A stretch of 64,000 bases of DNA from Minisyncoccia bacterium (GTDB lineage: Bacteria; Patescibacteriota; Minisyncoccia; Phycocordibacterales; CAIZLB01), in the NCBI GenBank assembly GCA_041752275.1, contig JBGSHK010000008.1, positions 70,543 through 134,542 of the forward strand, given 5' to 3'. The notes under the pieces were generated by a model that did no database searches, had not been told where the DNA came from, and worked only from the letters and a program-made list of their open reading frames with translations. Shown here one piece after another: positions 8,677 through 59,673 of the stretch. A program made the position numbers and the translations under genes. Numbering within the stretch: position 1 is the stretch's first letter; each line of letters begins with the position of its first letter.

Positions 8677-8713
8677 TTTTTAATGACAAAATCTTAAAAA
8701 TAGTGTATGGTAT

Positions 8714-33583: not shown

Positions 33584-33904
33584 ATGAATAATATTAATTA
33601 TCGAAATGAACTTTTGCATCACAAGCTACATAGACATGCAAAACATCATGTTCATAGACTTCGAGGTAAGTCAGAGGCACATAGAAAAGCCTTTGCTTTT
33701 TCTTTTGCTTTTACTATAACTTTTGTTATTTTTACACTTTGGTATTTTTTATCTCTACCAAAGATATTGGAAAGTTATGAGGTTACCAAGTCTGAAAATG
33801 AAAGGTTAAATGAAGATATTTTTGGTAAATTAAAAAATGCATTTACAGGATCGGATATAGAAAGTGGTGGATTAAATATAGAAATTAGTGAATATAATAA
33901 ATAA
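33584..33904 (+). CDS. Small membrane protein with a His-rich N-terminus.
   Basis: HHKLHRHAKHHVHRLRG followed by one TM helix. Confidence 0.3.
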   Translation: MNNINYRNELLHHKLHRHAKHHVHRLRGKSEAHRKAFAFSFAFTITFVIFTLWYFLSLPKILESYEVTKSENERLNEDIFGKLKNAFTGSDIESGGLNIEISEYNK

Positions 33905-36269
33905 ATATATAAAAACAATGAAAACAATAAAAATAATCACATTAATCTTTATCTTCGTATCAACTTTAAGTTATAAGGGTGGTATTGAAGCGTCAGTTAT
34001 ACAGGCTGATCCAAATTATGTGGCCGAATTTGAAACTGTAGCCAACACTACTATTGATCATGACTCCAGCGTAACAAATTCAAATTTAACTACTATTGTA
34101 GAAAATGATGATAAAATCATAACATTTGCTACTTATTTTGATACAATAAATTTGAGTGGTTATTTGTATTTATTACGTCTAAACAAAGATAGAACTATAG
34201 ATAATACTTTTAGTAAATATAATTATGGTGTGCAAAATGAAACAGCTTTATATGGTCTTACAAAGCAATCAGATAGTAAACTCCTTTTAGGAGGAAGAAA
34301 CGTGGAAGGTTATGGATATAAAATATTGATTAGATTAAACGCTGACGGAACTGTTGATTCAGGTTTTAGTCAAGGTTTTAGTGATCTTGAAGATGCTGAG
34401 CAAGTAGAACAAATAATAATGCAACCCGATAATAAAATCTTAGTAAGAGGAACTTTTCTTAGATACAATGGTTTTAATAGAAAGTATTTAACACGTTTAA
34501 ATACTGATGGAACTCGTGATACAGGATTCAATTTAGGTACAGGATTTAGTTCCAGTGTATCAAATATAGTTCTACAGGATGATGGCAAAATAATAGCTGT
34601 TGGTAATTTTATAACATACAGTGGAGTATCTGCAAATCGTATAATACGTCTAAACTCTGATGGAACGAGAGATAATACTTTTGATATGGGTACAGGTTTT
34701 GATCAGAATCCTACTAAAACATTAATACAGTCTGATGGTAAAATATTAGTATTTGGGAATTTTACAACATACAACGGAGTATCCGCAAATCGAATAATAC
34801 GCCTAAATAGTGATGGAAGTAGAGATAATACTTTTGATATGGGTACAGGTTTTAATAGTAGACCAACTATAGTCTTACAAGATGATGGTAAAATATTGGC
34901 TGTCGGACATTTTATAACATACAACGGAGTATCTGCAAATCGAATAATACGTCTAAACTCTGATGGAACGAGAGATAATACTTTTGATATGGGTACAGGT
35001 TTTTCTGCTGAACCTATTTTTGTAAAAATACAATCAGATGGTAAATATTTAATTAGTGCAAGATTTCCTGGGATAACATATAACGGAGTATCTACAAATG
35101 GTTTAATACGTCTAAATACTGATGGAAGTCGTGATACTACTTTTGACATAGGTACAGGCTTTGGTGTTATTGTGTCAGAAGCAATAATACAAAACAACGG
35201 TGATATACTTGTAGGAGGATCACTTCAGAACTACAATGGTTCCCCAGTAAAAAACCTCATCCGCCTAGAAAAAGACATAGTTTCAACACCTACAAATCCA
35301 GTAGACTTAAAAACATCATCAGACACAGGAACATCAACCATAGACAATATAACAAATGACAACACTCCAACATTTACACTAGGATGTGATGCAACTGCAT
35401 ACACTGTATCTTTGTATATAAACAGTGTGTTAAATGCAACAACAACATGTTCTTCAGCTTCAGTTGACATTACTACAGCAACAACATTAACAGATGATGT
35501 ATACACAGTACAATACAGTCAATCAAATAACATAAGAGAAACAACACTTTCACCATCCATATCTGTTACTGTAGATACTACAGACCCAACAACATCTATT
35601 GTATCTGTAGATACAGACTCAACCTCACCTTACAGTAGCTTAAACACATCACCTCAAATAGCTCTATCTTCTGTTGTAGATGACACTATCTCAATACCTG
35701 ACTTCACATGTTTGCCAACACCGGCAACAAGTCTTGTTGTTGTATGTACAAGAACAACTCCATATTCAATAGGAGCTAAGACAGAGATTGTAACTATTCA
35801 AGACCTTGCAGGTAATCAGGCAACTACATCTATATCATTTAGTATAGAATCAGCACCTGTTGTCTCATCAGGTGGGGGAGGAGGTTTCTCTGGTGGTGGA
35901 TCTTCATCATCATATGTACATCCTTCACTAACATCATTTACAACAACAAATAACACTCAAGCGACATCAACACTCAACCCTATTTCAACATCAACAACTT
36001 CAACAACATCAAACATCGCAAACATCATTTTCTCAACAAATCTTAGACAAAACTCAAGAGGTCAAGATGTAAAAAACCTACAAATATTTCTAAACACTAC
36101 GGGATACATAGTCTCAACAAGAGGCAACGGATCAAAAGGAAATGAGACAAACTTCTTCGGTCCTGCAACACGTGCAGCTTTGATAAGATTTCAAAAAGCA
36201 TACAATATTAAACCTGCATACGGTTTCTTTGGACCTATTACAAGAAATGTGATCAACGGTTTGAAATAG
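33888..36269 (+). CDS. Secreted surface protein: delta-60/propeller-type repeats, Thr/Ser-rich Ig-like region, Gly linker and a C-terminal peptidoglycan-binding domain.
   Basis: Signal peptide. At least 6 repeats of ...RIIRLNSDGTRDNTFDMGTGF.... GGGGGFSGGGSSSS linker. C-terminal QDVKNLQIFLN...FFGPATRAALIRFQKAYNI is PG_binding_1-like. Confidence 0.6.
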   Translation: MNIINKYIKTMKTIKIITLIFIFVSTLSYKGGIEASVIQADPNYVAEFETVANTTIDHDSSVTNSNLTTIVENDDKIITFATYFDTINLSGYLYLLRLNKDRTIDNTFSKYNYGVQNETALYGLTKQSDSKLLLGGRNVEGYGYKILIRLNADGTVDSGFSQGFSDLEDAEQVEQIIMQPDNKILVRGTFLRYNGFNRKYLTRLNTDGTRDTGFNLGTGFSSSVSNIVLQDDGKIIAVGNFITYSGVSANRIIRLNSDGTRDNTFDMGTGFDQNPTKTLIQSDGKILVFGNFTTYNGVSANRIIRLNSDGSRDNTFDMGTGFNSRPTIVLQDDGKILAVGHFITYNGVSANRIIRLNSDGTRDNTFDMGTGFSAEPIFVKIQSDGKYLISARFPGITYNGVSTNGLIRLNTDGSRDTTFDIGTGFGVIVSEAIIQNNGDILVGGSLQNYNGSPVKNLIRLEKDIVSTPTNPVDLKTSSDTGTSTIDNITNDNTPTFTLGCDATAYTVSLYINSVLNATTTCSSASVDITTATTLTDDVYTVQYSQSNNIRETTLSPSISVTVDTTDPTTSIVSVDTDSTSPYSSLNTSPQIALSSVVDDTISIPDFTCLPTPATSLVVVCTRTTPYSIGAKTEIVTIQDLAGNQATTSISFSIESAPVVSSGGGGGFSGGGSSSSYVHPSLTSFTTTNNTQATSTLNPISTSTTSTTSNIANIIFSTNLRQNSRGQDVKNLQIFLNTTGYIVSTRGNGSKGNETNFFGPATRAALIRFQKAYNIKPAYGFFGPITRNVINGLK

Positions 36270-47528: not shown

Positions 47529-48179
47529 ATGAACTTTGAAACAAATCTCTTCGTTATGAGGGTTTTCTTTATTGCAACCCTTATTATTTTCTTTTCATTC
47601 TTAGAATGGTGGGTACATAGATATCCAATGCATAACAAAAAGTTTAAAAAACTTCCTGTTCTTGGATTACTTTTTGAAAGTCATGTTGGTTCAGGGGGAC
47701 ATCATAGTCGTTATGGCTATTGTCCAAATCATCCCGAGTGTCATGACGAAGATCATGAACATGAACCGATTTTGCAAAAAATTTGGTTTGGGTTTTTGGT
47801 AGCTTTTGCTGGAAGTATTCCTTTCTTTAGTTTGGAAATCCTGACTACTTTTGAATACAATCTTACTGCCATATGCGCTCTTGGAATCTATACCTACTAC
47901 TGGCTCTTTGAGTTAGTACATGTGGCAACACATGATGGAAAGCATTGGCAAAGGGTTTTACTTAAAAAGATTGATTACTTTGATATCATGCTGAGTCATC
48001 ATATGATACACCACACTATCAAGTTCAACATGAACTTTACTTTGGTAAATCATTGGTGTGATTATTTGTTTGATACCAAGTATGAGGCTAAAAAAAGTTC
48101 AGTGTTGATGGTCCGGATTATTACTTGCGTAGTCTTACTTGGACTCTTGATATCATTTCTGACTCTGGTTTACAGGTGA
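47529..48179 (+). CDS. Membrane His-box protein (fatty-acid hydroxylase/desaturase superfamily-like).
   Basis: HRYPMH, HVGSGGHH, HDEDHEH, HVATHDGKH and SHHMIHH histidine clusters with TM helices. Confidence 0.4.
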   Translation: MNFETNLFVMRVFFIATLIIFFSFLEWWVHRYPMHNKKFKKLPVLGLLFESHVGSGGHHSRYGYCPNHPECHDEDHEHEPILQKIWFGFLVAFAGSIPFFSLEILTTFEYNLTAICALGIYTYYWLFELVHVATHDGKHWQRVLLKKIDYFDIMLSHHMIHHTIKFNMNFTLVNHWCDYLFDTKYEAKKSSVLMVRIITCVVLLGLLISFLTLVYR

Positions 48180-49624: not shown

Positions 49625-49951
49625 ATGAAAAAAATAGAGTTTACAGATAATCAAAAAGAGGTTGTGAAAAAATTTGATTTAGATATCAAAGAATGTCTTT
49701 TTTTGTTGAAAAAAAACCAAGAAGAAGCTAGAGATTTTTTTAATTCGGAAATATATTTTAAATATAAGGATTATATATTTAATAGTGATGGATTTATGAG
49801 TAAATTTCAATTATCAATAATTGAAATGGATGAATATTTTAATAATGAAGGTGCAAAAGTTGCAATGTTGTATAGCACTGAAAAAAATTTTATTCTAAAT
49901 ATAGATAAAGAAGAAGAATATGTGTCTGCTATAAAAGAGTTTTTTGAATGA
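49625..49951 (+). CDS. Hypothetical small acidic protein.
   Basis: 108-aa ORF followed by a hairpin plus T-run at 49966-50002. Confidence 0.3.
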   Translation: MKKIEFTDNQKEVVKKFDLDIKECLFLLKKNQEEARDFFNSEIYFKYKDYIFNSDGFMSKFQLSIIEMDEYFNNEGAKVAMLYSTEKNFILNIDKEEEYVSAIKEFFE

Positions 49952-50269: not shown

Positions 50270-51532
50270 ATGAAAGAAATAATCACACATTCACCAATTC
50301 AGGTCAGACCAATGGAGAATATTACCCATGAAAGATTACTTAGCTTACTTTCGGCTGAATCAGCTAATAATCTTTTAGAAGCACTCACGGAACAAGACAG
50401 AACACGTTTAGATGTGTGGAATACTTATCTTAAAAATGAGACTTTCGATGATCTATCTGAAGAGGGTAGAGATAAATTAATAACAGAATTAATTGACACC
50501 CGATACTCAATACTTGCAGATAATTATGATATTAAAATTGATAAAAGATTAGTTTTAAGAGACGATAAAGAAAACTACATTCATACATTAAAAGAAATAA
50601 TCTCTAGATTGTTTGACGAAAAAGTTTTAATAGTTAAACCTGAAAATTTTCATATATGTAAAAATTGTTCTTTTATTATTGCACCCAAAGATGCGAAAAT
50701 AACCGCCTGTCCCGACTGTTCATCTACAGATTTAAGCACAGTAGAAAAGAACGGAATGTTTTTAAATGTTGATACAGGTAAAATGTCTGAATTTGAAACC
50801 AGAGGGTTTGATGTGCTATCTGCAGAAGGGAGAAATAGAGTTAAATCTGCTATGTTGATGATGCCACTTGTAGTTAGTGTTGCAAAACATAGAGAACATG
50901 GTGTTTCTTTAGAAGAATTTGGTGTTAGTCCAGAATTTAAACTAGACCCAAAGATTTCTATAGCACTATCTGGAGCAGTTGCCAGAGAGGCGGGGATTGG
51001 AGAAGTCGGAATTTCTATACAAGGTATTGATTCATTAAAAAACAATGTTCCCTTTACTCTTTTATTAGACCCTGATACACAAACTAAATTTCTTAATATA
51101 GGAATGGTCCCTACTTTTTCAACCCCTGAATTAGAAAAATATAGCTCTTTATTTTATTTTCCTTTTTTAGCTTTGGTAATTGCCGGTAAATCAAAAAAAA
51201 TGAGTAGTGATGAAATTCAATTACAGTTAAAGCAATTTGAAAAAACAAGGACAAAGCTATCATCCTGTGTAGAGGCGCTGAGAAAAACAACAGAGACCTA
51301 TGCTGCAGGAAATATAAGTCTTACAAAAGATGAAATGAATAGACTTTCAGATACTCTTAAAGATGATTTAAAAGATGGTAAATTTAAACACGCTGTTGAA
51401 GCCATGCATAGTTTTATTTTTGATTGGCTTTCTCGTGTATATATAAATCAATGTAAAGATTCTGGGTCTAGAGCAGATCCTGAACTGCTTCAATACATAG
51501 AAAAGATTCTTTCGCCAATTTTTAAAAAATAG
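50270..51532 (+). CDS. Hypothetical protein with an internal CxxC...CxxC zinc ribbon.
   Basis: CKNCSF...CPDCSS. No other recognised domain. Confidence 0.4.
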   Translation: MKEIITHSPIQVRPMENITHERLLSLLSAESANNLLEALTEQDRTRLDVWNTYLKNETFDDLSEEGRDKLITELIDTRYSILADNYDIKIDKRLVLRDDKENYIHTLKEIISRLFDEKVLIVKPENFHICKNCSFIIAPKDAKITACPDCSSTDLSTVEKNGMFLNVDTGKMSEFETRGFDVLSAEGRNRVKSAMLMMPLVVSVAKHREHGVSLEEFGVSPEFKLDPKISIALSGAVAREAGIGEVGISIQGIDSLKNNVPFTLLLDPDTQTKFLNIGMVPTFSTPELEKYSSLFYFPFLALVIAGKSKKMSSDEIQLQLKQFEKTRTKLSSCVEALRKTTETYAAGNISLTKDEMNRLSDTLKDDLKDGKFKHAVEAMHSFIFDWLSRVYINQCKDSGSRADPELLQYIEKILSPIFKK

Positions 51533-51542
51533 TAAAGTTATT

Positions 51543-52292
51543 TTAAACAGATTTTTTTAAATATTCTAAATCTTCCGGTGTGTTAATGGTTAATATCTCA
51601 TCTTTGTCAACGATTTCAAAAGAAACATTTTTGAATTGATTGATTGCTACTTCAATTATCCTGCTAACTGCATATTCACCATTTGGCAGTTGTGGTATCA
51701 AATGTTTATTGTTCTCAAAATAATATTTATTTAAACAAATTATTCCTGTACCAGATAAGTGTCCATATTCACCAATTTCTTCTTTATTTACAGGTCTGAC
51801 ACCTAAAACTCTTTTTTTATCTGTTAGATATCCAACCTTATGTAACCCTTCATTAAACTCTCTTGTTAAAAGTAAACTAACCATAGCTTTTGTGCTTGTG
51901 TGTGTTTTAATTAACCTCTCTAATGTTTGAGGTTTAAGAAACCAGCCATTATCAGCAGGTAAAACTAAAACTAGATCAGTATTATTTGAAATTTTATTCA
52001 TTCCTGAAACAACAGCACCTAAAGTACCGTCTAAAATTTCCTGTATGGCAAATAAAATATTTGACAAATGATTTAAATTTTTTTTTACATGGTCTTCAAC
52101 ATCTTTAGATTTATAACCAATTACAATTATAATATTTTCAATTTTTAATTTGCTTACCGTATTAATAATTTTAACTAGAATAGATTGATTCTTAATTGTT
52201 GTAAGTGGTTTAGGAATTTGCCCACCCAATCTAGTACCTTTTCCTGCGGCCATTATTATTACAGATGTTTTTTTATCATTAATCATAGACAT
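51543..52292 (-). CDS. IspD/TarI/LicC-like cytidylyltransferase (NTP_transferase fold).
   Basis: N-terminal VIIMAAGKGTRLGGQIPKPL matches the AAG.G.R...PKQ signature. Overlaps the upstream gene by 14 nt, so probably one operon. Confidence 0.6.
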   Translation of the reverse strand: MSMINDKKTSVIIMAAGKGTRLGGQIPKPLTTIKNQSILVKIINTVSKLKIENIIIVIGYKSKDVEDHVKKNLNHLSNILFAIQEILDGTLGAVVSGMNKISNNTDLVLVLPADNGWFLKPQTLERLIKTHTSTKAMVSLLLTREFNEGLHKVGYLTDKKRVLGVRPVNKEEIGEYGHLSGTGIICLNKYYFENNKHLIPQLPNGEYAVSRIIEVAINQFKNVSFEIVDKDEILTINTPEDLEYLKKSV

Positions 52293-54594
52293 TATTCAAT
52301 AATACAGAAATATTTCTATTTAATAAAGTTGCAATTTCTTCTATCTTTGATTCTTTTGATGATTTTTCTAAATTGTTAATTATCTTAGAATACAAGTTTA
52401 ACATATCAAAAATTGCCATAATAATCGACTCTTTTGCAACTTCTTTATTGTAAATTTTCTCAACTTTTTTAATAATAAAATCTAATTCTTTATTTAAAAT
52501 ATTTGAATTTACTAAAATGATTCTTGATAAGAATTTTCCAATATCACAGCTATGTTTTCCTAATGCAAGCATTGGGTCAAGAAGGGTAAATTTATTTTCC
52601 AATTTAGAATAAATTATATTTTCAGGTTTAAAGTCACCAAAAATAATATCACACTTATTAAGTAGTTCAGGTTTTTCTTCTAGAATAGAATTTAGTTTAT
52701 TAATAATTTCTTTTAATTTATTTACTTCATCAGTATTACTTAAACCTAAATAATTTGGTAGGGATAATAATTTAAAATTTCTGGCACAATGATAATTTAA
52801 ATCATCAGTCTCAATTAATAAATTAGAGTCTACAGGGATATTTGTCAACAAATGGTGGGTATTTTTAAGTACGTCTAGAGTCTCAGAAACCATAGATATT
52901 GTTTCTGGGTTATATGATTTTATAATATTATCTAAGACTTCACCCTCAACTTGATCCATAAGTATCGCTGTACCATCTTCAATTAACTTAATATTTTTTG
53001 GTACATTAACACCGATTTTTGAAAGTTCAAAAAGCTGACTAGCATGTGTATTTATTCTTTTAATATCTCTAACCTGTTCTTTGGAGTCACTAAAATACAT
53101 TTTAAGTATCTTTCGGGTCACGTTCGACAATACAACTTTACTTTTTTCAGGAGTACCTATTCTGAATACTTTATCACTTAAATCGAGACCATACTGACCG
53201 TAATTTATATTAAGAATTTTCTCTTCCTCTTTGAGGATAATTTCCATTGTGTTTAAAATCACCAACCATTCCTGATCAATTATTTTTTCTTGACCACCAT
53301 TTAATATTTTTCTTGATAATTCTAACGCTTTTATTATTTCCTTGTCTTTTGATTTATCTAACCACCGATCCAGATCATTCATATCTATATTATTAATATT
53401 CCTAATATGTAAAAGATAGAAAACCGATATAGAAAATAATTTTGCAAATCTTCTCATCTGCTCATCTGAATTATTTAATCTTGAAATCTTCTTTTCACAT
53501 TCTCTGTAGTTTATTAAACTAGCCCTGTAACAATCATACTTAATATCTTGCACACTAACATCAATTTTAATTTTCTTTTTATCTATTGAAAAGAAGTGTT
53601 GATTTACTCCATGTGCTAAAATTGGACCTCGATTGAATCTCGAGATTTTTTCACTTAGTAAATCACTTAAATTATTAATACTTAAATCTAATTTAGTATC
53701 AAATTGTTCCTTAAACCTAAGTTGTAAATCACTTAATTCGGAAAAATGTGCTAGATACCCATCTGATAGAATATATAAATCGATATCGGAACAACCATTC
53801 TTAAAGAAGTGTGTGATTTGTGAACTACCCCAGATAAACATGTAAGTATCACTACCTAGAAGACCTATAACTCGCTCTCTCGCTATAAAACTTAAAAGAA
53901 CATTTCTAATAGGATTAGAATAATAAGTATCGATTCTGTGATCACCTTCATTCATTTCAATTGAAAATATAACACCTTGCCCATACAGATCTTTGTATTC
54001 CTGAATAGATTTAGACAGTTTAGATACATCAAGAGCACTATCATTTTTGGAATAAAATAAACTAATCGGCAAACCTGTTTTAACTAGTACATCTAAACCA
54101 TCAAAACAGTATCTCGGTTTCATTAGATCTTGGAGTTCAAAGTTCATTGATTCAGCGGGTTTGCAATTTCCTTCAGACACTAAAAATTTTATTGAATCAT
54201 TAAAGTCTTCATGAATCCAATCTGAACCAAGTCCAAAAACTGGGGAGAATAAGCTTACTCCTTTTAAATACTTATACTTAGATAAATCAATTTTTTGTAT
54301 AATTAAAGACGAGAACGAATAAGCTATTATAACAAATGACTTTTCAGAACTTTCTAGACTCTGTAGTAATAGTTCGATATTTTTGACTGTGTTTGTGACT
54401 GAAAATTCACCAATCTCTTCATATAGTCCAGGATGTCGGTATTCGTGAACAGTAAGACCTTTACCTCTAAGATCTGTCATGAATAAAAAATCTTTTTTTC
54501 TACCAGGAACACCTGGCAAGAAAACATATTCCACAGTCTCATTGTTTTTTTTCATATTTGAATATATTCTACTACGAAAATTACTACTTAGCAA
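52279..54594 (-). CDS. Three-domain protein: alpha/beta-hydrolase-like N-domain, minimal nucleotidyltransferase (pol-beta superfamily) domain, and a C-terminal APH/choline-kinase-like phosphotransferase.
   Basis: IAYSFSS nucleophile-elbow-like segment. NTase motif GSSQITHFFKNGCSDIDLYIL. Kinase Brenner motif IIFGDFKPENII and downstream LLDP. Confidence 0.55.
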   Translation of the reverse strand: MLSSNFRSRIYSNMKKNNETVEYVFLPGVPGRKKDFLFMTDLRGKGLTVHEYRHPGLYEEIGEFSVTNTVKNIELLLQSLESSEKSFVIIAYSFSSLIIQKIDLSKYKYLKGVSLFSPVFGLGSDWIHEDFNDSIKFLVSEGNCKPAESMNFELQDLMKPRYCFDGLDVLVKTGLPISLFYSKNDSALDVSKLSKSIQEYKDLYGQGVIFSIEMNEGDHRIDTYYSNPIRNVLLSFIARERVIGLLGSDTYMFIWGSSQITHFFKNGCSDIDLYILSDGYLAHFSELSDLQLRFKEQFDTKLDLSINNLSDLLSEKISRFNRGPILAHGVNQHFFSIDKKKIKIDVSVQDIKYDCYRASLINYRECEKKISRLNNSDEQMRRFAKLFSISVFYLLHIRNINNIDMNDLDRWLDKSKDKEIIKALELSRKILNGGQEKIIDQEWLVILNTMEIILKEEEKILNINYGQYGLDLSDKVFRIGTPEKSKVVLSNVTRKILKMYFSDSKEQVRDIKRINTHASQLFELSKIGVNVPKNIKLIEDGTAILMDQVEGEVLDNIIKSYNPETISMVSETLDVLKNTHHLLTNIPVDSNLLIETDDLNYHCARNFKLLSLPNYLGLSNTDEVNKLKEIINKLNSILEEKPELLNKCDIIFGDFKPENIIYSKLENKFTLLDPMLALGKHSCDIGKFLSRIILVNSNILNKELDFIIKKVEKIYNKEVAKESIIMAIFDMLNLYSKIINNLEKSSKESKIEEIATLLNRNISVLLNNVYD

Positions 54595-54639
54595 CTCAGG
54601 GTGTTTTACATACTTTGTTCTGGGTGATAAAATAATCCA

Positions 54640-55266
54640 ATGAATAAAGTTATTTTAATCAGACACGCTGAAAGCGAAAGTAATATAGGTATAGTATTTA
54701 GACATCAAAATATTATAAAAATAACTGAAAATGGTATTAAACAAGCAAATGATTTGCTTGAGATACTTGATAAGCCAGATAAAATTATCTGTTCTAAGTA
54801 TTTACGAACTATCGAAACAGCAGAGCCTATGATGTTAAAGTTTCCAGAAGTAGAAACGCATATTTGGATAGACATACATGAGTTTAAACCTGTAAATACA
54901 GACAAACATGTTGGAATAACAAGAGAAATAAGAGATAGTTTTGCAAAAGAGTATTGGGATAAAATAGATCCTATCTACTGTGACGGTGGAGATGCTGAAA
55001 GTTTTAAAGACTTTGTAAACAGAGCTAATCAATCAATTATAAAAATGAAAAATCTCAAGGGAGTTAATTATATTTTTTCACATGAAAACTTTATTCGCTG
55101 TGTTTTGATTTTATTAAATGAATTTAAAGAATTTAATAATGAAGAAAAAACAAAAGATTTATATGAACGTATAATGAAAAAATTCACTGAATCATATAAG
55201 ACAAGTGAACCATCTATTAAAAATACTGATGTTTTTGATGTGTCTGGTTTACTTATAGAGTATTAA
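54640..55266 (+). CDS. Histidine phosphatase superfamily (phosphoglycerate mutase-like) protein.
   Basis: N-terminal ILIRHAESESN (RHG-type catalytic His motif). Confidence 0.6.
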   Translation: MNKVILIRHAESESNIGIVFRHQNIIKITENGIKQANDLLEILDKPDKIICSKYLRTIETAEPMMLKFPEVETHIWIDIHEFKPVNTDKHVGITREIRDSFAKEYWDKIDPIYCDGGDAESFKDFVNRANQSIIKMKNLKGVNYIFSHENFIRCVLILLNEFKEFNNEEKTKDLYERIMKKFTESYKTSEPSIKNTDVFDVSGLLIEY

Positions 55267-55348: not shown

Positions 55349-56392
55349 ATGTTCACAGACTTACTTTCACTTATATTTAACAGAAACCTATCGACAAGAA
55401 AAATAGAATTTGCTTTTATAGTCCACCCCAGAAACACATATGACATTTTTCGTAAATACAAATTACTAAAAATATTTCCCAAAAAGGTTGTTGATTTATT
55501 TCTACTAATAATGTGGCCGACATACGGGGGAAGTATAAAAATTGATCAAGGTGAAAAAGGTACTAAGTGGGGAGCAATTATAATAAGTCCTTTGACAGGT
55601 AAACAGATGTTAAGATACAGAAAACTAGCTGCAAACACTGTGTTTATGGCTAGTAAGCTGGCTAAAATATATGGTTCAAAAGTTATAGGATTAGGTGCAC
55701 TTACGTCAGTTGTCACAGACGGGGGAATATATGTGAGTGATAAACTAAAAGGTTTACATTTTACATCAGGTAACGGCTTAACTGCAGCAACAACATCAAA
55801 CGATATTTTAAGAATAATAAAAGATAAAAATATTACAGGACCGATATCTGTTATTGGTGCCACTGGATCAATAGGAAAGGGTATAACAAAAGTTTTGGAT
55901 GAAGGTTGTAAAAATGATTTGATATTAATCGGAAAAAATAAAGAAAGAACAATTGGTCTGGCTCATGAGTTGTCAAGAAATAATGTTATTTGTACAACTG
56001 ACATAGAAGAAAATAACAAAGCTGAAATAGTTATTGTTACAACAAGTGCAAATGGAGCAATAATTGATCATCATTTATTAAAAAATGCTAAAATAATATA
56101 TGATATAACTCAGCCAAAAAATACTCCTGATCACATAATGGAAGGTGATGCTATATCATATATAGATGGTGGCTTAATACAGTTACCTGAAAATATCAGA
56201 ATAGGTATGGACATAAGTTTACCAAAAGGAATTGCTTTTTCTTGTCTTTCTGAAACCCTGCTTATAGCCATATCAGAAAAATATTACCTAAAATCAGAAA
56301 AAGATTTAAAAATTGAAAACATTAAAGAATTGTCTAAATTAGCAATGGAAAATAATTTTAATTCTTATTTAATCCAAAATGGAAATAAATAA
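55349..56392 (+). CDS. NAD(P)-binding oxidoreductase, acyl-ACP reductase (AAR)-like / amino-acid dehydrogenase-like.
   Basis: Rossmann motif VIGATGSIGKGITKVL at mid-protein. AAR-like length and layout. Confidence 0.4.
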   Translation: MFTDLLSLIFNRNLSTRKIEFAFIVHPRNTYDIFRKYKLLKIFPKKVVDLFLLIMWPTYGGSIKIDQGEKGTKWGAIIISPLTGKQMLRYRKLAANTVFMASKLAKIYGSKVIGLGALTSVVTDGGIYVSDKLKGLHFTSGNGLTAATTSNDILRIIKDKNITGPISVIGATGSIGKGITKVLDEGCKNDLILIGKNKERTIGLAHELSRNNVICTTDIEENNKAEIVIVTTSANGAIIDHHLLKNAKIIYDITQPKNTPDHIMEGDAISYIDGGLIQLPENIRIGMDISLPKGIAFSCLSETLLIAISEKYYLKSEKDLKIENIKELSKLAMENNFNSYLIQNGNK

Positions 56393-58025
56393 TTTTTTTA
56401 CATTTGAAAACATAGTTTTAGCTTCAACTGCTTTAGTAAATTTTATATTATTTATTATAATATTTGTTAGAAGAAACAAAAGCAAAAACACTTATTTTTT
56501 TTTAGGTTTTATACTTTCTGTTATGGGTTGGGTTTTAGGAGTTTTATTTTTTAGAGTTTTAGAAGGTAAGTATTTATTACTAGTAACAAGGTTTGTTTAC
56601 TTTGCTGCAACACTTATACCTTTTTTTATAATTTTATTTACCCAAACTTTTCCTAAAAGAGATTTAGGTTTTTCAAAAAAGAAAACTATTATATTTTTAA
56701 CATTTCCCATACTATTTTTAATTCTAACATCTATACCTGGGGCTATTATCAAAGATATCAATGAAATAAATGGATATAAATCAATTATTTTTGGACCATT
56801 TTATTATTTATATTTTGTATACATAATAACTTATTTTTTGATTGGAATAATTTTGATGATAAAAAATTATTTTAAACTAAAAGGTATTGAAAGAAATCAG
56901 ATTGAAATTATATTCTTAAGTATACTAGTTTCTTCTTTCGTGGGTATGTCAACCAACTTAATTATGCCTGCATTTAATAATTTTTCTCTTTTTTGGGTTG
57001 GGCCATTTTTTAGTGGATATATGGTTTTAACAATAGGTTATGCCATGATCAAATATGGCCTGTTTAATATAAAACTTATAGCCACAGAGTTTGCAGCCCT
57101 GTCTACTTGGGTATTAATGTTTGTTAAATTGATGTTAGATGAAAGTCTAACAGATAAACTTATAGATGGTGTAGTTTTGATAATTTTAATTATAAGTGGT
57201 TTATATGTTATAAGAAGTGTTATGAAGGAAATAGAGCTTCGTGAAAAAGATGATCAACTTGTAAGTGATATGGCCGGATTGAATCAAACTCTTGAAAAAA
57301 CAAATGTAAAACTCCAAGAACTCGACCAAAAAAAGTCCGAGTTCATGTCACTTGCCACCCATCAACTCCGCGCACCCTTAACCGCCATGCGTGGATACTA
57401 CTCCATGATACAAGATGGAACTTTTGGTAAGATCAACAACCCTGAACTAGAAGATGTCATCGGTAAAATTTCACGCTCAACTACAGACCTAACCATGATA
57501 GTGGAGGACTATCTTAACATCTCACGTATAGAGCAAGGTAAAATGCAATACAATTTTGTAAGTATAGACGTTGCAGAAATAGTGCAGGATGTTGTGAAAG
57601 AGGTAACTCCAACTGTTGCACATGCGGGACTCAAACTAAATTTGGAATATGATCAAAAACAAAAATATATTGTAACTGTAGATAAAGGAAAAATTAAACA
57701 AGTTATATTTAACATAATAGATAACTCTATAAAATACACACCAAAGGGGAGTGTGGACATTTCTATCAAGAAAACAGATAGTGATAAAAAAGTTGTTATA
57801 TCCATTAAAGACACAGGTGTTGGCATAAAACCAACTGTATTACCTCAATTATTTCAAAAATTTACCCGAGCACCGGATGCATCTGAAACAAATATACTTG
57901 GTACAGGACTTGGTTTATATGTTGCAGATCAAATACTGAAGGCACATCATGGTCGAGCATGGGCCGAGTCAGAAGGTCAAGGGAAAGGGTCTCAATTTTA
58001 TATAGAATTAAACTTATTAAAATAA
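56379..58025 (+). CDS. 7TM-receptor sensor histidine kinase (paralog A).
   Basis: Seven N-terminal TM helices. Coiled coil. H-box LATHQLRAPLTAMRGY. HATPase IKDTGVGIK and GTGLGLY. Confidence 0.7.
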   Translation: MEINNFFTFENIVLASTALVNFILFIIIFVRRNKSKNTYFFLGFILSVMGWVLGVLFFRVLEGKYLLLVTRFVYFAATLIPFFIILFTQTFPKRDLGFSKKKTIIFLTFPILFLILTSIPGAIIKDINEINGYKSIIFGPFYYLYFVYIITYFLIGIILMIKNYFKLKGIERNQIEIIFLSILVSSFVGMSTNLIMPAFNNFSLFWVGPFFSGYMVLTIGYAMIKYGLFNIKLIATEFAALSTWVLMFVKLMLDESLTDKLIDGVVLIILIISGLYVIRSVMKEIELREKDDQLVSDMAGLNQTLEKTNVKLQELDQKKSEFMSLATHQLRAPLTAMRGYYSMIQDGTFGKINNPELEDVIGKISRSTTDLTMIVEDYLNISRIEQGKMQYNFVSIDVAEIVQDVVKEVTPTVAHAGLKLNLEYDQKQKYIVTVDKGKIKQVIFNIIDNSIKYTPKGSVDISIKKTDSDKKVVISIKDTGVGIKPTVLPQLFQKFTRAPDASETNILGTGLGLYVADQILKAHHGRAWAESEGQGKGSQFYIELNLLK

Positions 58026-58026
58026 T

Positions 58027-59673
58027 ATGATTTTACACGAAATAGTAACAATTGAATCAGTAGCTTTATTGTCTACAGCTTTTTTAAATATAGTACTTTT
58101 TATTATTTTAATAACAAATGATAAAAAAAACAAAAATATATATTTTTTTTCAGGATTTATATTTTCCATGTTTTTTTGGGTAGCAAACACTTTTTTATTT
58201 TATATAATAAATGATAAAGATGTTTTACTGATAAATACTCATCTAATATACCTAGCACCACCTTTTATACCTGTTTTCATGATACTTTTTGCAAAAACTT
58301 TTCCCAAAGAAAAATTAAATTTTTCAAGAAGAAAACTGGCTATTTTTCTAACCCCTGCTTTTATTGTTTCTACAATATCTTTGATACCCAATGCTGTTAT
58401 AGACGATGTTGTTATCATAAATGAATATTATAAATATATTACATATGGACCTTTATATCCTTTATATTTTATATATATAACATTTTATTTTTACATGGTT
58501 ATAGATGTAATGATTAGAAAATATTTAATACTTAAAGGTTTACAAAGAAATCAAGTTGAAACCATTTTCTTAACATTAATTATAGGTTCTTTTGTTGGTG
58601 TATTTTCAAGTTTAATCATGCCAACATATGGAAATTTTGATTTATTCTGGGTAGGATCTTTTTATAGTGGATACTTAGCCGTTGCAGCATTTTATGGAAT
58701 AATAAAATATGGTCTTTTTGACATAAAACTTGTAGCAACGGAGTTCTTAGCTTTTTCAACATGGGTATTGTTACTTATAAAAATATTTTTTAATGATAGT
58801 TTACAGAACAGAATAATAGACTCAGTAATCCTTGTAATAATAATTATATCCAGTATATTATTAATAAAAACAGTTAAAAAAGAGATAAAATTAAGAGAGA
58901 AAGATGACACATTACTAATTGATATAACCAATTTGAATGCAAGACTCGAAAACACAAACATAAAACTTAAAGAGTTAGACCAAAAAAAATCTGAATTTAT
59001 ATCATTGGCAACACATCAGCTTAGAACACCATTAACTTCGATGAAAGGATATTCTTCCATGTTACTTGATGGAACTTTTGGTAAAATAAATAATCCAGAA
59101 ATAGAGGAAGCTATAAGTAAAATACATAGATCATCTATAGATTTATCTATGATAGTTGAAGACTATTTAAACATATCACGTATAGAGCAAGGTAAAATGC
59201 AATACAATATTTCAAGTATAAATTTAATAGATTTAATAAAAAATATTTTAGAGGAATTTAAATCTACAGCAAACAGATTACATCTTAATTTAAATTTACA
59301 TTATGATAATAATTTTGATTATAAAATAAGAGCTGATGAAGGTAAAATAAAACAAGTTTTTGTAAACATTATAGACAATGCCATTAAATATACTCCAGCA
59401 GGGGATATTGATGTTTTTATAGAAAAAATAGATGCACAAAAGAAAATATTAGTTAGAATAAAAGATACAGGAATAGGTATAAAAAAAGAAGTTTTACCAA
59501 ATCTTTTTCACAAATTTGTTCGAGCGCCGGACGCATCTCGTGTTAATATACTTGGTACAGGATTAGGACTTTACGCTGCAGGGGAAATATTAAAAGCTCA
59601 CAAATCTCGCGCATGGGTAGAATCAAACGGTGAAGGACATGGGTCAACTTTTTATGTAGAGATAAATATTTAA
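58027..59673 (+). CDS. 7TM-receptor sensor histidine kinase (paralog B). Same length as A and a tandem duplicate of it.
   Basis: Architecture collinear with 56379-58025. H-box LATHQLRTPLTSMKGY. HATPase IKDTGIGIK and GTGLGLY. Confidence 0.7.
   Translation: MILHEIVTIESVALLSTAFLNIVLFIILITNDKKNKNIYFFSGFIFSMFFWVANTFLFYIINDKDVLLINTHLIYLAPPFIPVFMILFAKTFPKEKLNFSRRKLAIFLTPAFIVSTISLIPNAVIDDVVIINEYYKYITYGPLYPLYFIYITFYFYMVIDVMIRKYLILKGLQRNQVETIFLTLIIGSFVGVFSSLIMPTYGNFDLFWVGSFYSGYLAVAAFYGIIKYGLFDIKLVATEFLAFSTWVLLLIKIFFNDSLQNRIIDSVILVIIIISSILLIKTVKKEIKLREKDDTLLIDITNLNARLENTNIKLKELDQKKSEFISLATHQLRTPLTSMKGYSSMLLDGTFGKINNPEIEEAISKIHRSSIDLSMIVEDYLNISRIEQGKMQYNISSINLIDLIKNILEEFKSTANRLHLNLNLHYDNNFDYKIRADEGKIKQVFVNIIDNAIKYTPAGDIDVFIEKIDAQKKILVRIKDTGIGIKKEVLPNLFHKFVRAPDASRVNILGTGLGLYAAGEILKAHKSRAWVESNGEGHGSTFYVEINI

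Follow-up and report, generated by a model that had tools for sequence, protein, structure and literature searches.

Six activities form one rare, conserved cytoplasmic enzyme cassette of uncultured bacteria, undescribed so far. The cassette comprises a MetRS-like zinc-knuckle protein without its ATP-activation motifs, a serine alpha/beta-hydrolase, an atypical kinase resembling Bud32, a histidine phosphatase, and two NTases, one of minimal pol-beta type and one stand-alone of GlmU type. These activities are tied into one system because of synteny across approximately 20 metagenomic loci and Rosetta-stone fusions, and synteny together with gene fusion and fission establishes the parts as one predicted functional unit. 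Sequence comparison likewise establishes the predicted identity of each part and, the MetRS-like protein excepted, the conservation of its catalytic residues. The sole genome match is one Patescibacteria MAG; the remaining relatives are metagenomic. In the window—the whole 64-kb stretch of DNA that was analyzed—the features are as follows:

50270..51532, + strand: MetRS-like protein, 420 aa, class Ia aaRS fold, outside the original finding
nt 50657-50719, + strand: zinc knuckle CxxC...CxxC of the MetRS-like protein (C130, C133, C147, C150)
51543..52292, − strand: stand-alone NTase of the GlmU N-terminal type, 249 aa, without acetyltransferase domain
52279..54555, − strand: fusion protein hydrolase + NTase + kinase, 758 aa (the ORF reaches a TTG at 54594, 771 aa)
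53851..54555, − strand: domain 1 (residues 1-235), alpha/beta-hydrolase with the triad Ser80 (AYSFS)/Asp172/His206
53200..53850, − strand: domain 2 (residues 236-452), minimal pol-beta-type NTase with G243-S244 ... D257-x-D259 ... D290
52279..53199, − strand: domain 3 (residues 453-758), atypical Bud32-like protein-kinase-like phosphotransferase with Lys485, D641-x-K643-x-x-N646, and D660
54640..55266, + strand: histidine phosphatase His_Phos_1, 208 aa, with R8-H9, R56, E81, and H148, divergent from the fusion gene

The three ORFs of the initial annotation are confirmed at 52279-54594 (− strand, 771 aa from TTG), 51543-52292 (− strand, 249 aa), and 54640-55266 (+ strand, 208 aa), as is the overlap of the NTase gene with the upstream fusion gene by exactly 14 nt (52279-52292). 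The 771-aa frame exists, but the true start of the fusion protein is almost certainly ATG 54555, giving 758 aa, because all full-length homologs (754-761 aa; one ORF called 796 aa) start at the position equivalent to this internal ATG. The flagged frames are not chance ORFs: 758 codons in DNA of 28% GC are kept at 50-96% identity in approximately 10 metagenomic relatives, and the 249-aa and 208-aa proteins score above the Pfam gathering thresholds. The block had been described as strongly AT-rich and, hence, as an accessory region. The three genes do have a GC content of 27-28%, but this is not distinctive against the window mean of 31%; their GC z of −0.74 to −0.96 versus 47 window genes marks an ordinary composition, with which the argument for an accessory region falls.

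The fusion protein has 11 homologs among 5.8 billion proteins, and the Pfam scan gives no match for it as a whole. Its AF2 model has a pLDDT of 72, with a poorly modelled kinase N-lobe. The tripartite layout proposed earlier—alpha/beta-hydrolase, minimal pol-beta NTase, and protein-kinase-like phosphotransferase—is upheld, as is its non-canonical character, and elsewhere its parts stand alone or join in different fusions. The motifs read from the sequence are all present: GS...SDIDL (W242-S245, S256-L260), FGDFKPEN (639-646), and LLDPM (658-662) in the fusion protein, MAAGKGTRL...PKPL (14-30) in the 249-aa protein, and RHAESE (8-13) in the 208-aa protein. The Ser-Asp-His triad of the hydrolase is conserved in homologs. 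The motif residues of the pol-beta NTase are invariant, and the helical domain that follows it carries an invariant ExIxRxNRG motif (302-310). In the domain 2 family, Polbeta matches seven of nine members (best E 9e-4) and NTP_transf_2 three of nine, all below threshold; the relative P0090 exceeds the Polbeta gathering score (27.5 versus 26.9), and a PDB sequence search with domain 2 yields no match.

The kinase domain features the β3 Lys485, the catalytic loop D641-x-K643-x-x-N646, and a DFG-equivalent D660 within LLDPM. The conservation of these residues, on which the earlier kinase assignment depended, holds in a deep alignment: K643, N646, and D660 are kept in 13/13 sequences and D641 in 12/13. 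The choline-kinase type assigned to this domain does not hold. The closest named and solved relatives, as judged by profile searches, are Bud32/KEOPS kinases: NCBIfam Bud32 reaches E 3e-8 for the window kinase and 5e-12 for relatives that stand alone, well short of the cut-off in every case, and a broad kinase-family profile against the PDB finds Bud32-type chains first (8e-9 to 5e-6) and ePKs after. Pfam APH, Pkinase, and RIO1 all stay sub-threshold on the window family.

The 249-aa protein had been taken for an IspD/TarI/LicC-like cytidylyltransferase. It profiles as a GlmU-type domain, predicted to be sugar-1-phosphate uridylyltransferase-like—the outcome that had been named as speaking against that assignment. 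Pfam assigns NTP_transf_3 (58 bits) and NTP_transferase (52 bits). NCBIfam GlmU covers residues 10-245 with E 1e-25, and IspD the N-terminal half only with 2.5e-10. GlmU is the best match in the PDB for the single sequence, and the family profile finds it at approximately 1e-16 over the full length and IspD at 2e-4. Invariant in the family are G17-x-G19-x-R21, K28, Q84, G89-T90, D114, G181-T182-G183, E206, and N237; the uracil-type Q84...G89-T90, the Mg ligands D114/N237, and a GEY motif are kept. The positions that we take to be equivalent to the GlmU sugar-binding residues E154/N169 (E. coli numbering) are not conserved in this family; therefore, the substrate would not simply be GlcNAc-1-P. 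The orthogroup stands apart, its 13 members sharing ≥48% identity and the next match dropping to 31%. It is as small and as discrete as the fusion-protein and MetRS-like families, with both of which it shares contigs.

These assignments bear on the pathway originally envisaged, in which a LicA/LicC- or TarI/TarJ-like kinase and cytidylyltransferase make a CDP-alcohol (choline, ribitol, glycerol, or ethanolamine) for cell-surface decoration. The 14-nt overlap of a kinase-bearing gene with an NTP-transferase-fold gene, the conserved kinase residues, and a Pfam IspD score of 35.2 for the N-terminal half, above the gathering cut-off of 27, would fit it. Against it stand the same-profile PDB scores of LicC (0.021) and TarI (0.063), confined to the first approximately 50 residues, and the lack of any choline-kinase family match. 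The LicB/LicD- or TagF-like transferases that were to be sought are, like TarJ-like genes, absent from the scanned window ORFs, and a comparison of 11 non-redundant loci finds none that recurs; the same holds for transporters and glycosyltransferases. Nor does the pathway account for the MetRS-like partner, for the hydrolase and pol-beta NTase domains, or for the variants lacking the GlmU-type NTase. A phosphocholine or teichoic-acid pathway is, hence, rejected, and CDP-alcohol formation in general is extremely improbable.

The histidine phosphatase is a genuine cassette member, as the initial annotation had assumed on adjacency. Pfam His_Phos_1 matches it with 65 bits, an ortholog of 62% identity occupies the same position in L001, and in L018-20 a His_Phos gene is divergent and adjoins the MetRS-like gene. 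Fusions join a His_Phos domain to the kinase in P0087, P0091, P0093, and P0177 and to the hydrolase-NTase in P0063; the window phosphatase shares 23-28% identity with these fused domains, that is, family-level kinship only.

The gene set as first framed left out the MetRS-like protein, which invariably accompanies the kinase–nucleotidyltransferase pair and is the core and best-conserved cassette member: its identity is 70-78% in lineages whose fusion protein is approximately 50% identical. Foldseek places MetRS or the PyrN MetRS-like domain in all of the top 50 PDB matches (E down to 6e-7), with a poor model (pLDDT 57, TM approximately 0.3). The sequence itself gives weak collinear matches to MetRS/LeuRS/IleRS, and Pfam Anticodon_1 weakly matches 5/16 family members at residues 355-413. 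HIGH and KMSKS, the ATP-activation motifs, are both absent in the deep-family comparison, and the protein, so predicted, cannot form a canonical aminoacyl-adenylate. It could be read as a divergent housekeeping synthetase whose adjacency is inherited synteny in one lineage, with no system at all. Its conservation far above that of its neighbors would agree with this, as would the convergent gene in the window type (10 nt between its stop codon and that of the NTase gene), hence no co-transcription, and the absence of a visible canonical metG from the 64-kb window. The missing motifs, a family with only approximately 16 close members in a set of 5.8 billion clustered proteins, and the persistence of the adjacency make this highly improbable. 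The gene adjoins other components in every locus with room for it and is co-directional, in one operon with cassette partners, in L010, L011, L012, and L023-26.

Reading MetRS-like → ← GlmU-like ← kinase ← hydrolase-NTase, one gene order is shared by the window, L001-6, L009 (whose contig ends before any MetRS-like gene), and L015-21; relatives with this order are only approximately 50% identical and differ in their flanking genes. Adjacency persists where the genes have been turned, reordered, fused or split, or given other flanks, and does so in relatives down to approximately 22% identity. The fusion pairings are hydrolase+NTase+kinase, hydrolase+NTase, His_Phos+kinase(+His_Phos'), and hydrolase+NTase+His_Phos; in L022 every part is a separate gene. 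No additional gene family recurs near the cassette in the 11 non-redundant loci.

The neighborhoods bear on two further readings. The first is modification of an antibiotic or xenobiotic, or the making of or immunity to an aminoacyl-nucleoside natural product: a MetRS-targeting compound would be inactivated, or assembled, by an ANT-like NTase, an esterase, and an APH-like kinase, and the MetRS-like protein, incapable of adenylation, would act as a decoy, a binder, or a ligase-like tailoring enzyme. Bifunctional aminoglycoside-modifying enzymes have a layout comparable to NTase, helical domain, and kinase on one chain, and the kinase gives weak APH(3') and APH matches, but this likeness to resistance enzymes is sub-threshold. 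Self-resistance is a frequent role of aaRS paralogs in biosynthetic clusters, and a MetRS-like domain is active in secondary metabolism in hydrazine synthetases, for example, PyrN; the cupin domain and N-hydroxylase that define these are, however, absent here. Radical SAM, YcaO, ThiF, and aminotransferase genes lie within approximately 8 kb in L003 and L005 but are not conserved across loci, and no transporter, NRPS/PKS, or precursor gene recurs in the compared loci. With a host lineage that appears genome-reduced, per the single Patescibacteria genome match, this reading is unlikely. Still less likely is anti-phage defence or a toxin–antitoxin-like function comparable to HipA-GltX or MNT-HEPN, with kinase, NTase, and hydrolase acting on translation components. 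The rare, patchy distribution, the minimal-NTase-type domain, the known targeting of aaRSs by the kinase HipA, and methyltransferases, T5orf172, Fic, Zeta_toxin, DGR, transposases, or a CRISPR-like array near some loci would suit it. Conversely, PADLOC gives no significant match for any component (one marginal AbiZ match of the 420-aa protein, E 0.003, 15 bits), none of the viral contigs searched carries the cassette, the window copy is of ordinary composition and surrounded by housekeeping genes, nothing in the cassette is obviously a toxin or an effector (nuclease, pore, NADase), and a GlmU-like enzyme and a phosphatase are atypical of defence systems.

The main rival is a reversible modification system directed at tRNA (or protein), a possibility of rather modest probability. 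The MetRS-like protein would either recognize the tRNA or itself be the regulated target. Phosphate would be added by the Bud32-like kinase and removed by the histidine phosphatase; likewise, the pol-beta NTase would write, and the alpha/beta-hydrolase erase, a nucleotidyl or ester-linked group, and the GlmU-like enzyme would be a lineage-specific add-on supplying an activated donor. The Bud32/KEOPS kinship of the kinase and the fold, anticodon-domain-like C-terminus, missing motifs, and top conservation of the MetRS-like protein point this way. So does the GlmU-less core, the more widespread form: 34 contigs carry P0177, and the gene after it encodes an ASCH (putative RNA-binding) protein. 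Kinase and phosphatase in a single chain are typical of switch enzymes (PFK-2/FBPase-2), and GluQRS is a precedent of an aaRS paralog that modifies tRNA. A further precedent is ArkI, a tRNA 2'-kinase of the ePK superfamily whose operon also encodes a tRNA nucleotidyltransferase and whose action is countered by an eraser (PMC9095486). On the other side, GlmU-type NTases use small phosphate esters, and in the window type 14 nt are common to this gene and the kinase-bearing one; distant kinase relatives exceed the Pfam APH gathering score and, hence, score as small-molecule kinases; and no tRNA gene recurs near the cluster. Alpha/beta-hydrolases are not known to erase nucleotidylation.

The best guess for the function, a tentative one, is activation of a sugar-like small molecule in the order kinase → phosphatase → nucleotidyltransferase, together with the adenylation-dead MetRS-like protein. 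Several points weigh against small-molecule activation: the nearest solved relatives of the kinase are Bud32-type tRNA-associated kinases, not sugar kinases; the GlmU sugar-binding positions are not conserved; the highly conserved MetRS-like protein with its anticodon-domain-like C-terminus suits a tRNA role better; no transferase that could act downstream on a UDP-activated product lies nearby; and AF2 gives poor models of both the kinase N-lobe and the MetRS-like protein. In addition, the deepest variants (L010-13, L023-26) lack the GlmU-like gene; therefore, NDP-sugar formation cannot be the core function. The proposed order resembles ADP/GDP-heptose synthesis and AmgK-MurU or NahK-GlmU salvage and differs in its logic from LicA/LicC and TarI/TarJ; precedents are HldE/GmhB/HddA/HddC and AmgK/MurU. 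In small-molecule activation, the kinase would phosphorylate a hydroxyl on a sugar-like (or nucleoside-like) compound, the histidine phosphatase would take off a second or distal phosphate, and the GlmU-type enzyme would convert the phosphate ester and UTP into a UDP-activated compound. The hydrolase may de-esterify, and the pol-beta NTase transfer NMP to, members of the same substrate series. Because it would not form a canonical aminoacyl-adenylate, the MetRS-like protein may provide specificity or binding, with an amino-acid/adenosine-type compound or a tRNA as its ligand, and receive or present the product.

The genes of the cassette lie side by side in the window as follows:

50270–51532, plus strand, 420-aa MetRS-like protein
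51543–52292, minus strand, 249-aa GlmU-like nucleotidyltransferase (NTase)
52279–54594, minus strand, hydrolase–NTase–kinase fusion, 771 aa when read from a TTG
54640–55266, plus strand, 208-aa histidine phosphatase (His_Phos)

The latter three were found where the initial annotation had placed them, with an overlap of exactly 14 nt between the first two of these and with every sequence motif it had quoted. Full-length homologs of the fusion (n = 9) have a length of 754–761 aa, with one ORF called at 796 aa, and begin at the equivalent of an internal ATG; hence, the true gene most likely spans 52279–54555 and encodes 758 aa. The 420-aa gene is absent from the initial annotation, carries no Pfam domain, and corresponds to a convergent gene of the relatives. 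The description of the block as AT-rich and therefore accessory fails, since the whole window has a GC content of 31% and the three flagged genes have GC z-scores of −0.74, −0.77, and −0.96 relative to the window's own genes. The surroundings are ordinary chromosome, featuring GluRS, TyrRS, a class II aminoacyl-tRNA synthetase, a P-type ATPase, PriA, RNase R, S1, SMC, Nramp, and a photolyase. A promoter and terminator scan performed no better than on shuffled sequence.

Several further features of the window were recorded. A 108-aa ORF (49625–49951) between an M16 peptidase and the MetRS-like gene has the lowest GC content of the window (22%, z = −2.07), with no Pfam match, and the related loci contain no homolog of it. 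The cassette region is bracketed by a 347-aa protein (55349–56392) resembling acyl-ACP reductase and the PigE N-terminal domain (NCBIfam E 1e-31 and 3e-16, below the cut-offs) and by a 216-aa fatty-acid-hydroxylase-like membrane protein (47529–48179, sub-threshold in Pfam), a lipid-type pair that is unusual in a Patescibacterium. Two paralogous histidine kinases of 548 aa, each with a multi-pass (7TM-type) region at its N-terminus, are encoded in tandem only 1 nt apart (56379–58025 and 58027–59673); related kinases occur near the cassette in the loci L002 (HisKA_7TM) and L005, probably as lineage synteny. Tandem proteins of 633 and 637 aa (4844–6745 and 6763–8676) each carry a C-terminal GH130 (beta-1,4-mannooligosaccharide phosphorylase) domain, preceded by ~300 aa that match nothing in Pfam. 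Enzymes of the GH130 type liberate a sugar-1-phosphate; with 45 kb between these two genes and the cassette, no link is claimed. A 793-aa protein (33888–36269), likely located at the cell surface, combines seven DUF5122 beta-propeller repeats with a Big_13 Ig-like domain and ends in a peptidoglycan-binding domain.

In a collection of 5.8 billion clustered proteins, the fusion family counts only 11 members; all relatives come from metagenomes, one of them from a Patescibacteria MAG. Where the contigs of the relatives hold enough sequence, the fusion is followed directly downstream by an NTP_transferase protein of ~240–250 aa and faced by the convergent ~420-aa gene. The flanking genes vary from locus to locus, and when 11 non-redundant loci were compared all against all by BLAST, no further family recurred; that the genes stay together by mere inherited synteny is given very little credence. 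An HMM search run exhaustively over 1.84 billion representatives returned 112 relatives, in which the domains are variously joined: hydrolase and NTase only (~450 aa, about 25 clusters), stand-alone kinases (~308 aa), His_Phos_1 and kinase (P0087), the same with a second divergent His_Phos_1 (P0091, P0093, and P0177), and hydrolase, NTase, and His_Phos_1 (P0063). Local HMM mapping of 22 loci together with context look-ups resolves the following four layouts.

Gene layouts of the cassette
Window type: MetRS-like gene convergent with the GlmU-like gene, which is preceded on its own strand by the hydrolase–NTase–kinase gene; His_Phos divergent beside the fusion in the window and L001
Split type (L009, L018–L021): ordered as in the window type, but the kinase is encoded by its own gene; His_Phos divergent beside the 420-aa gene in L018–L020
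Operon type (L010–L013, L023–L026): 420-aa gene, then hydrolase–NTase, then His_Phos–kinase with or without a second His_Phos; no GlmU-like gene; in L011, hydrolase–NTase–His_Phos instead
L022: 420-aa gene, then separate hydrolase, then separate pol-beta NTase

The upstream genes of L010, L011, and L012 are homologous to the 420-aa protein (hhalign probabilities of 99.7, 98.9, and 99.2%). Taken together, synteny and gene fusions show the fusion and the MetRS-like protein to be predicted functional partners of four enzyme activities that can be recognised. Scans of GTDB-representative genomes gave no true MetRS-like locus and, with the fusion, a single genome match: a hydrolase-domain fragment in the Patescibacteria MAG (L008), a placement consistent with the low GC content of the window. 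In this gene (JBAZKO010000005.1, positions 8001–9194 of the locus), residues 1–252 of the fusion hydrolase are matched at 56% identity and joined to an unrelated C-terminus, and the downstream frames are broken; this copy has either recombined or is decaying.

The neighbourhoods of the cassette hold additional elements. Genes for NUDIX, Ham1p-like ITPase, Maf, HD_4, CYTH, Fic, and NTP_transf_2 proteins occur within ~10 kb of several independent cassettes (L002 6651–9863; L005 2701–3198 and 21138–21683; L007 8127–9185; L023–L026 364–5367 and 12442–12783), and a gene of the putative RNA-binding ASCH type lies directly 3′ of the operon in L023–L026. These house-cleaning, nucleotide-signalling, and ASCH neighbours may point to a function connected with nucleotides or RNA. 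No tRNA gene recurs near the cassette. L011 carries a CRISPR-array-like stretch (10840–12412) in which a ~36-nt repeat (ATCTACAAAAGTAGAAATATAATGCTTACATTAGAT) occurs about 24 times at a spacing of ~63–64 nt, located ~0.8 kb downstream of the hydrolase–NTase–His_Phos gene; the 2.4-kb stretch contains no ORF of at least 60 aa except one of 61 aa inside the repeats. L001, the closest non-identical relative, carries a diversity-generating-retroelement-like pair (reverse transcriptase RVT_1 and bAvd, 495–1903) as well as Y1 and IS110 transposases within ~8 kb of the cassette. An RiPP cluster was considered and rejected: neighbours of the radical SAM, YcaO, ThiF, and M16-peptidase types are not kept between loci. 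A reading as an antibiotic, natural-product, or immunity cassette is doubtful.

The 249-aa NTase passes the Pfam thresholds of NTP_transf_3, NTP_transferase, and IspD, the last of these over residues 11–139 only (model positions 3–126 of 221), that is, the shared N-terminal half. GlmU ranks first in NCBIfam (E 1e-25, residues 10–245 against model positions 2–232; IspD 2.5e-10) and in a single-sequence search of the PDB. The profile of its 13-member orthogroup (A5) aligns over the full length with GlmU chains of the PDB at 9e-17 to 4e-8; HddC-type chains are matched at 2e-7, IspD and CobY each at 2e-4, LicC (1jyk) at E 0.021 over residues 1–53 only, and TarI (4jis) at 0.063, like IspD over the N-terminal part only. 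The family features invariant GxGxR, K28, Q84…G89-T90, D114, GTG, E206, and N237. The pyrophosphorylase signature of GlmU (LxxGxGTRMxxxxPK and the Mg and uracil residues) is thereby present, as MAAGKGTRLGGQIPKPL and the invariant Q84, G89-T90, D114, and N237. The orthogroup is discrete: its next relatives have an identity of at most 31%, its members lie on the same contigs as the fusion and MetRS-like families, and the gene is consistently linked to the kinase, hydrolase, and MetRS-like genes.

Compared with the N-domain of GlmU, the NTase aligns across both the nucleotide- and the sugar-binding lobes and shares the LxAGxGTR…PK signature, the Q…GT uracil-type motif, Asp/Asn at the Mg-ligand positions, and the GEY motif. 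It differs in that the left-handed beta-helix acetyltransferase domain is lacking and the GlcNAc-contacting positions appear changed, as read from an alignment against the GlmU reference numbering. Because the protein ends at residue 249 without an acetyltransferase domain and scores below the GlmU equivalog cut-off (90.4 against 366.85 bits), it is not GlmU proper. As judged by profiles and motifs, it is a stand-alone GlmU-N-type NTase, neither GlmU itself nor a LicC/TarI/IspD-type cytidylyltransferase, and on account of the Q…GT motif, we infer a UTP-type enzyme. The IspD/TarI/LicC-like cytidylyltransferase of the initial annotation is thus superseded by the GlmU-type profile that this annotation had itself named as contrary to it. 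Cobamide nucleotide-loop assembly, with a kinase, a CobY-like NTase, and a CobC-like phosphatase, was also rejected: CobY is matched at 2e-4 and GlmU at 1e-16, the resemblance to CobC is generic and does not reach the cut-off, and the loci have no recurring CobS/CbiB-like gene.

Searches with the whole 771-aa sequence against Pfam and the PDB returned nothing useful. The hydrolase domain features the alpha/beta-hydrolase fold with the nucleophile-elbow Ser, the acid, and the His of the triad all present. Residues 236–452 carry the invariant pol-beta NTase motif G243-S244-x11-S256-D257-I-D259-L and a third carboxylate, D290, in agreement with the consensus hG[GS]x9-13Dh[DE]h of the minimal (MNT/ANT-type) nucleotidyltransferases. 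In a scan of nine close family members, Pfam Polbeta is weakly matched in seven and NTP_transf_2 in three (sub-threshold, best E 9e-4), with neither listed for the window fusion itself; the remote relative P0090 passes the Polbeta gathering score (27.5 against 26.9). Residues 453–758 form a protein-kinase-like domain with the beta3 Lys, K485, invariant in the close family and the catalytic loop D641-x-K643-x-x-N646. Across the deep alignment, neither N646 nor the DFG-equivalent D660 varies, and D641 is kept in 12 of the 13 sequences, P0102 having GE. The catalytic residues of the kinase are conserved, and a kinase domain with non-conserved residues, which would have weighed against the initial proposal, is therefore not what is observed.

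The choline-kinase-type assignment did not survive. Against Pfam, APH, Pkinase, and RIO1 all stay sub-threshold, and Choline_kinase is absent even at E ≤ 10. NCBIfam names only Bud32, at E 3e-8 for the window protein and 5e-12 for the stand-alone relatives, the family scoring 33–46 bits against an equivalog cut-off of 125. With a broadened profile, the leading PDB matches are Bud32-type chains (8e-9 to 5e-6, covering both lobes); ordinary Ser/Thr kinases follow, and no APH or choline kinase is among the best 60 matches. Since Bud32 is nearest in both collections and more distant relatives exceed the Pfam APH threshold, the family can be placed, at the level of sequence profiles, between Bud32/RIO and APH. 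With Bud32, RIO, and ArkI, its best named and solved relatives, it shares the alignment of both lobes, the HGD/YGD-x-K/T-x-x-N catalytic loop, and a DFG-like IDP/IDF. Unlike Bud32, it bears a ~50-residue helical insertion with the motifs NYHCA-NF (invariant) and GRxSCDxGK, in which it is closer to APH-type small-molecule kinases; in contrast to KEOPS, the partners Kae1, Cgi121, and Pcc1 are lacking, and no locus holds a Kae1-like gene.

The initial model of a CDP-alcohol pathway shares with LicA/LicC and TarI/TarJ the generic logic only, namely a kinase and an NTP-transferase-fold enzyme that activate a phosphate ester. The differences are that the NTase is GlmU-type, the kinase is not of the choline-kinase type, and the partners are entirely other. 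The LicB permease and the LicD and TagF transferases are absent from the window ORFs scanned and have no recurrent counterpart in the 11 non-redundant loci; nor was a TarJ dehydrogenase or a GHMP-kinase IspE partner found, the kinase being protein-kinase-like and no dehydrogenase recurring in the loci. Of all readings, this one retains the least probability.

The 208-aa protein matches Pfam His_Phos_1 with 65 bits (cut-off 21.7) and has R8-H9, R56, E81, and H148 all present; by these residues and this score, it is classified as a bona fide His_Phos_1 protein. No specific NCBIfam equivalog (CobC, GpmB, or SixA) reaches its cut-off. Its membership in the cassette, first proposed for the window, is upheld by the fusions and by two different adjacencies, although its relation to the His_Phos domains fused in the relatives is at family level only.

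The 420-aa family (16 members) is the best conserved of the three core families, with 70–78% identity where the fusion has ~50%, and features an invariant CxxC…CxxC knuckle. The best 50 Foldseek matches of its AF2 model in the PDB are all MetRS or the MetRS-like domain of the hydrazine synthetase PyrN; the model has a pLDDT of 57, with E values down to 6e-7 and a TM score of ~0.3. Weak sequence matches comprise Pfam Anticodon_1 in 5 of the 16 members (residues 355–413), TIGR ileS (residues 355–398), and, with a deeper profile, human MetRS (residues 44–153, E 0.12), LeuRS (101–169), and IleRS (345–415, E 0.07). These weak matches, independent of the model, are collinear with a class Ia synthetase. 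In an hhalign comparison with an E. coli MetRS sequence, the zinc knuckle alone aligns (138–154 against 137–153, probability 2.8%, non-significant); its seemingly equal distance from the N-terminus is a lead only. In the deep alignment (A6), with positions assigned by alignment reading, there is no conserved His at the HIGH or Lys at the KMSKS position, the invariants being R208, G211, D226-P227-K228, Q251-G252, N258, and P261. On the low-confidence model and the weak matches, the protein is probably MetRS-derived and incapable of canonical adenylation.

Compared with repurposed class I aminoacyl-tRNA synthetase paralogs (MshC, GluQRS, the MetRS-like domain of PyrN/Spb40, and the cyclodipeptide synthases, CDPSs), the 420-aa protein would feature a class Ia/MetRS-like fold with a MetRS-type zinc knuckle and a helical anticodon-domain-like C-terminus, yet the family has no significant sequence similarity to MshC, GluQRS, PyrN/Spb40, or CDPSs. 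MshC, GluQRS, and the hydrazine synthetases retain HIGH/KMSKS and adenylate their amino acid, whereas the 420-aa family lacks both motifs; the CDPSs, which derive from TyrRS/TrpRS and have no anticodon domain, have likewise lost the ATP-binding signatures. A hydrazine synthetase (PyrN/Spb40) was rejected, as the protein has no cupin or extra domain, no N-hydroxylase neighbour, and no recurring monooxygenase. The MetRS paralog of Aravind et al. is of the cupin-linked hydrazine-synthetase type and differs in context from the 420-aa protein (PMC2922099). A defence or toxin-antitoxin system is improbable: PADLOC gave no significant match, with one marginal AbiZ hit on the 420-aa protein (E 0.003, 15 bits), and the viral contigs scanned hold no cassette.

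Comparative analysis of the sequences establishes what the six activities are predicted to be, that their catalytic residues are conserved, and that they are linked to one another. The best model, which is tentative, is a kinase, phosphatase, and nucleotidyltransferase activation of a sugar-like substrate. These three steps would act in this order on the sugar-like compound, with the 14-nt overlap of the kinase-bearing and GlmU-type genes suggesting consecutive steps; the hydrolase would add a de-esterification, the pol-beta NTase an NMP transfer, and the MetRS-like protein may serve as a binding or specificity module. Such a succession is known from HldE/GmhB or HddA/GmhB/HddC in NDP-heptose synthesis and from the AmgK-MurU(-MupP) and NahK-GlmU salvage pathways. 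As in these, the three chemistries are encoded together and variously fused, and, as in amgK-murU, the gene of a protein-kinase-fold kinase adjoins that of an NTP_transferase-fold enzyme. The differences are a Bud32-like kinase instead of a GHMP, PfkB, or typical APH kinase; a His_Phos_1 phosphatase instead of a HAD phosphatase; the hydrolase, pol-beta NTase, and MetRS-like protein, which have no counterpart; and variants without an NTP_transferase. Similarity to MurU or at the level of HddC was not found either (HddC-type 2e-7 against 1e-16 for GlmU): no MurU-named chain is among the A5 matches in the PDB at E ≤ 1, and MurU structures exist there.

The main weaknesses of the activation model are the operon-type variants without a GlmU-like gene, the Bud32-like kinase, and the resemblance of the most conserved member to a tRNA-binding scaffold. 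For these reasons, a tRNA- or protein-directed writer/eraser system is its main rival, somewhat unlikely in itself. A precedent is ArkI, an ePK-family tRNA kinase whose gene lies beside that of a tRNA nucleotidyltransferase (PMC9095486). A further and more novel reading, which is rather unlikely, has the 420-aa protein founding a class of adenylation-dead MetRS that uses tRNA or aminoacyl-tRNA in a CDPS-like manner, with the cassette as a tRNA-linked pathway of uncultured bacteria including Patescibacteria. It would amount either to a new tRNA hypermodification, with the Bud32-like kinase, pol-beta NTase, histidine phosphatase, and esterase as writers and erasers, or to an aminoacyl-tRNA-dependent aminoacylation of a UDP-activated sugar supplied by the kinase and the GlmU-like enzyme.

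The combination matches none of LicA/C, TarI/J, IspD/E, GlmU proper, AmgK/MurU, KEOPS, hydrazine synthetase, or the PADLOC defence systems. Since each domain falls in a known superfamily, the cassette is conservatively filed among the kinase/NTase activation modules as a novel combination. Of its three core proteins, two (the 758-aa fusion and the MetRS-like protein of 420 aa) are members of families for which there is no Pfam model, cluster look-ups gave no source names, and no literature was located. The sole genome match places the cassette in the Patescibacteria, a genome-reduced and for the most part epibiotic group. Under either reading, the compact and fully defined set of genes is amenable to in vitro tests. 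If the activation model is true, it would represent a new way in which a sugar-like compound, once scavenged, is activated with a nucleotide; if the tRNA-linked reading is true, it would represent a new lineage of repurposed aminoacyl-tRNA synthetases, a MetRS-derived analogue of the CDPSs, and a further case of a Bud32/ArkI-like kinase partnered with a nucleotidyltransferase.
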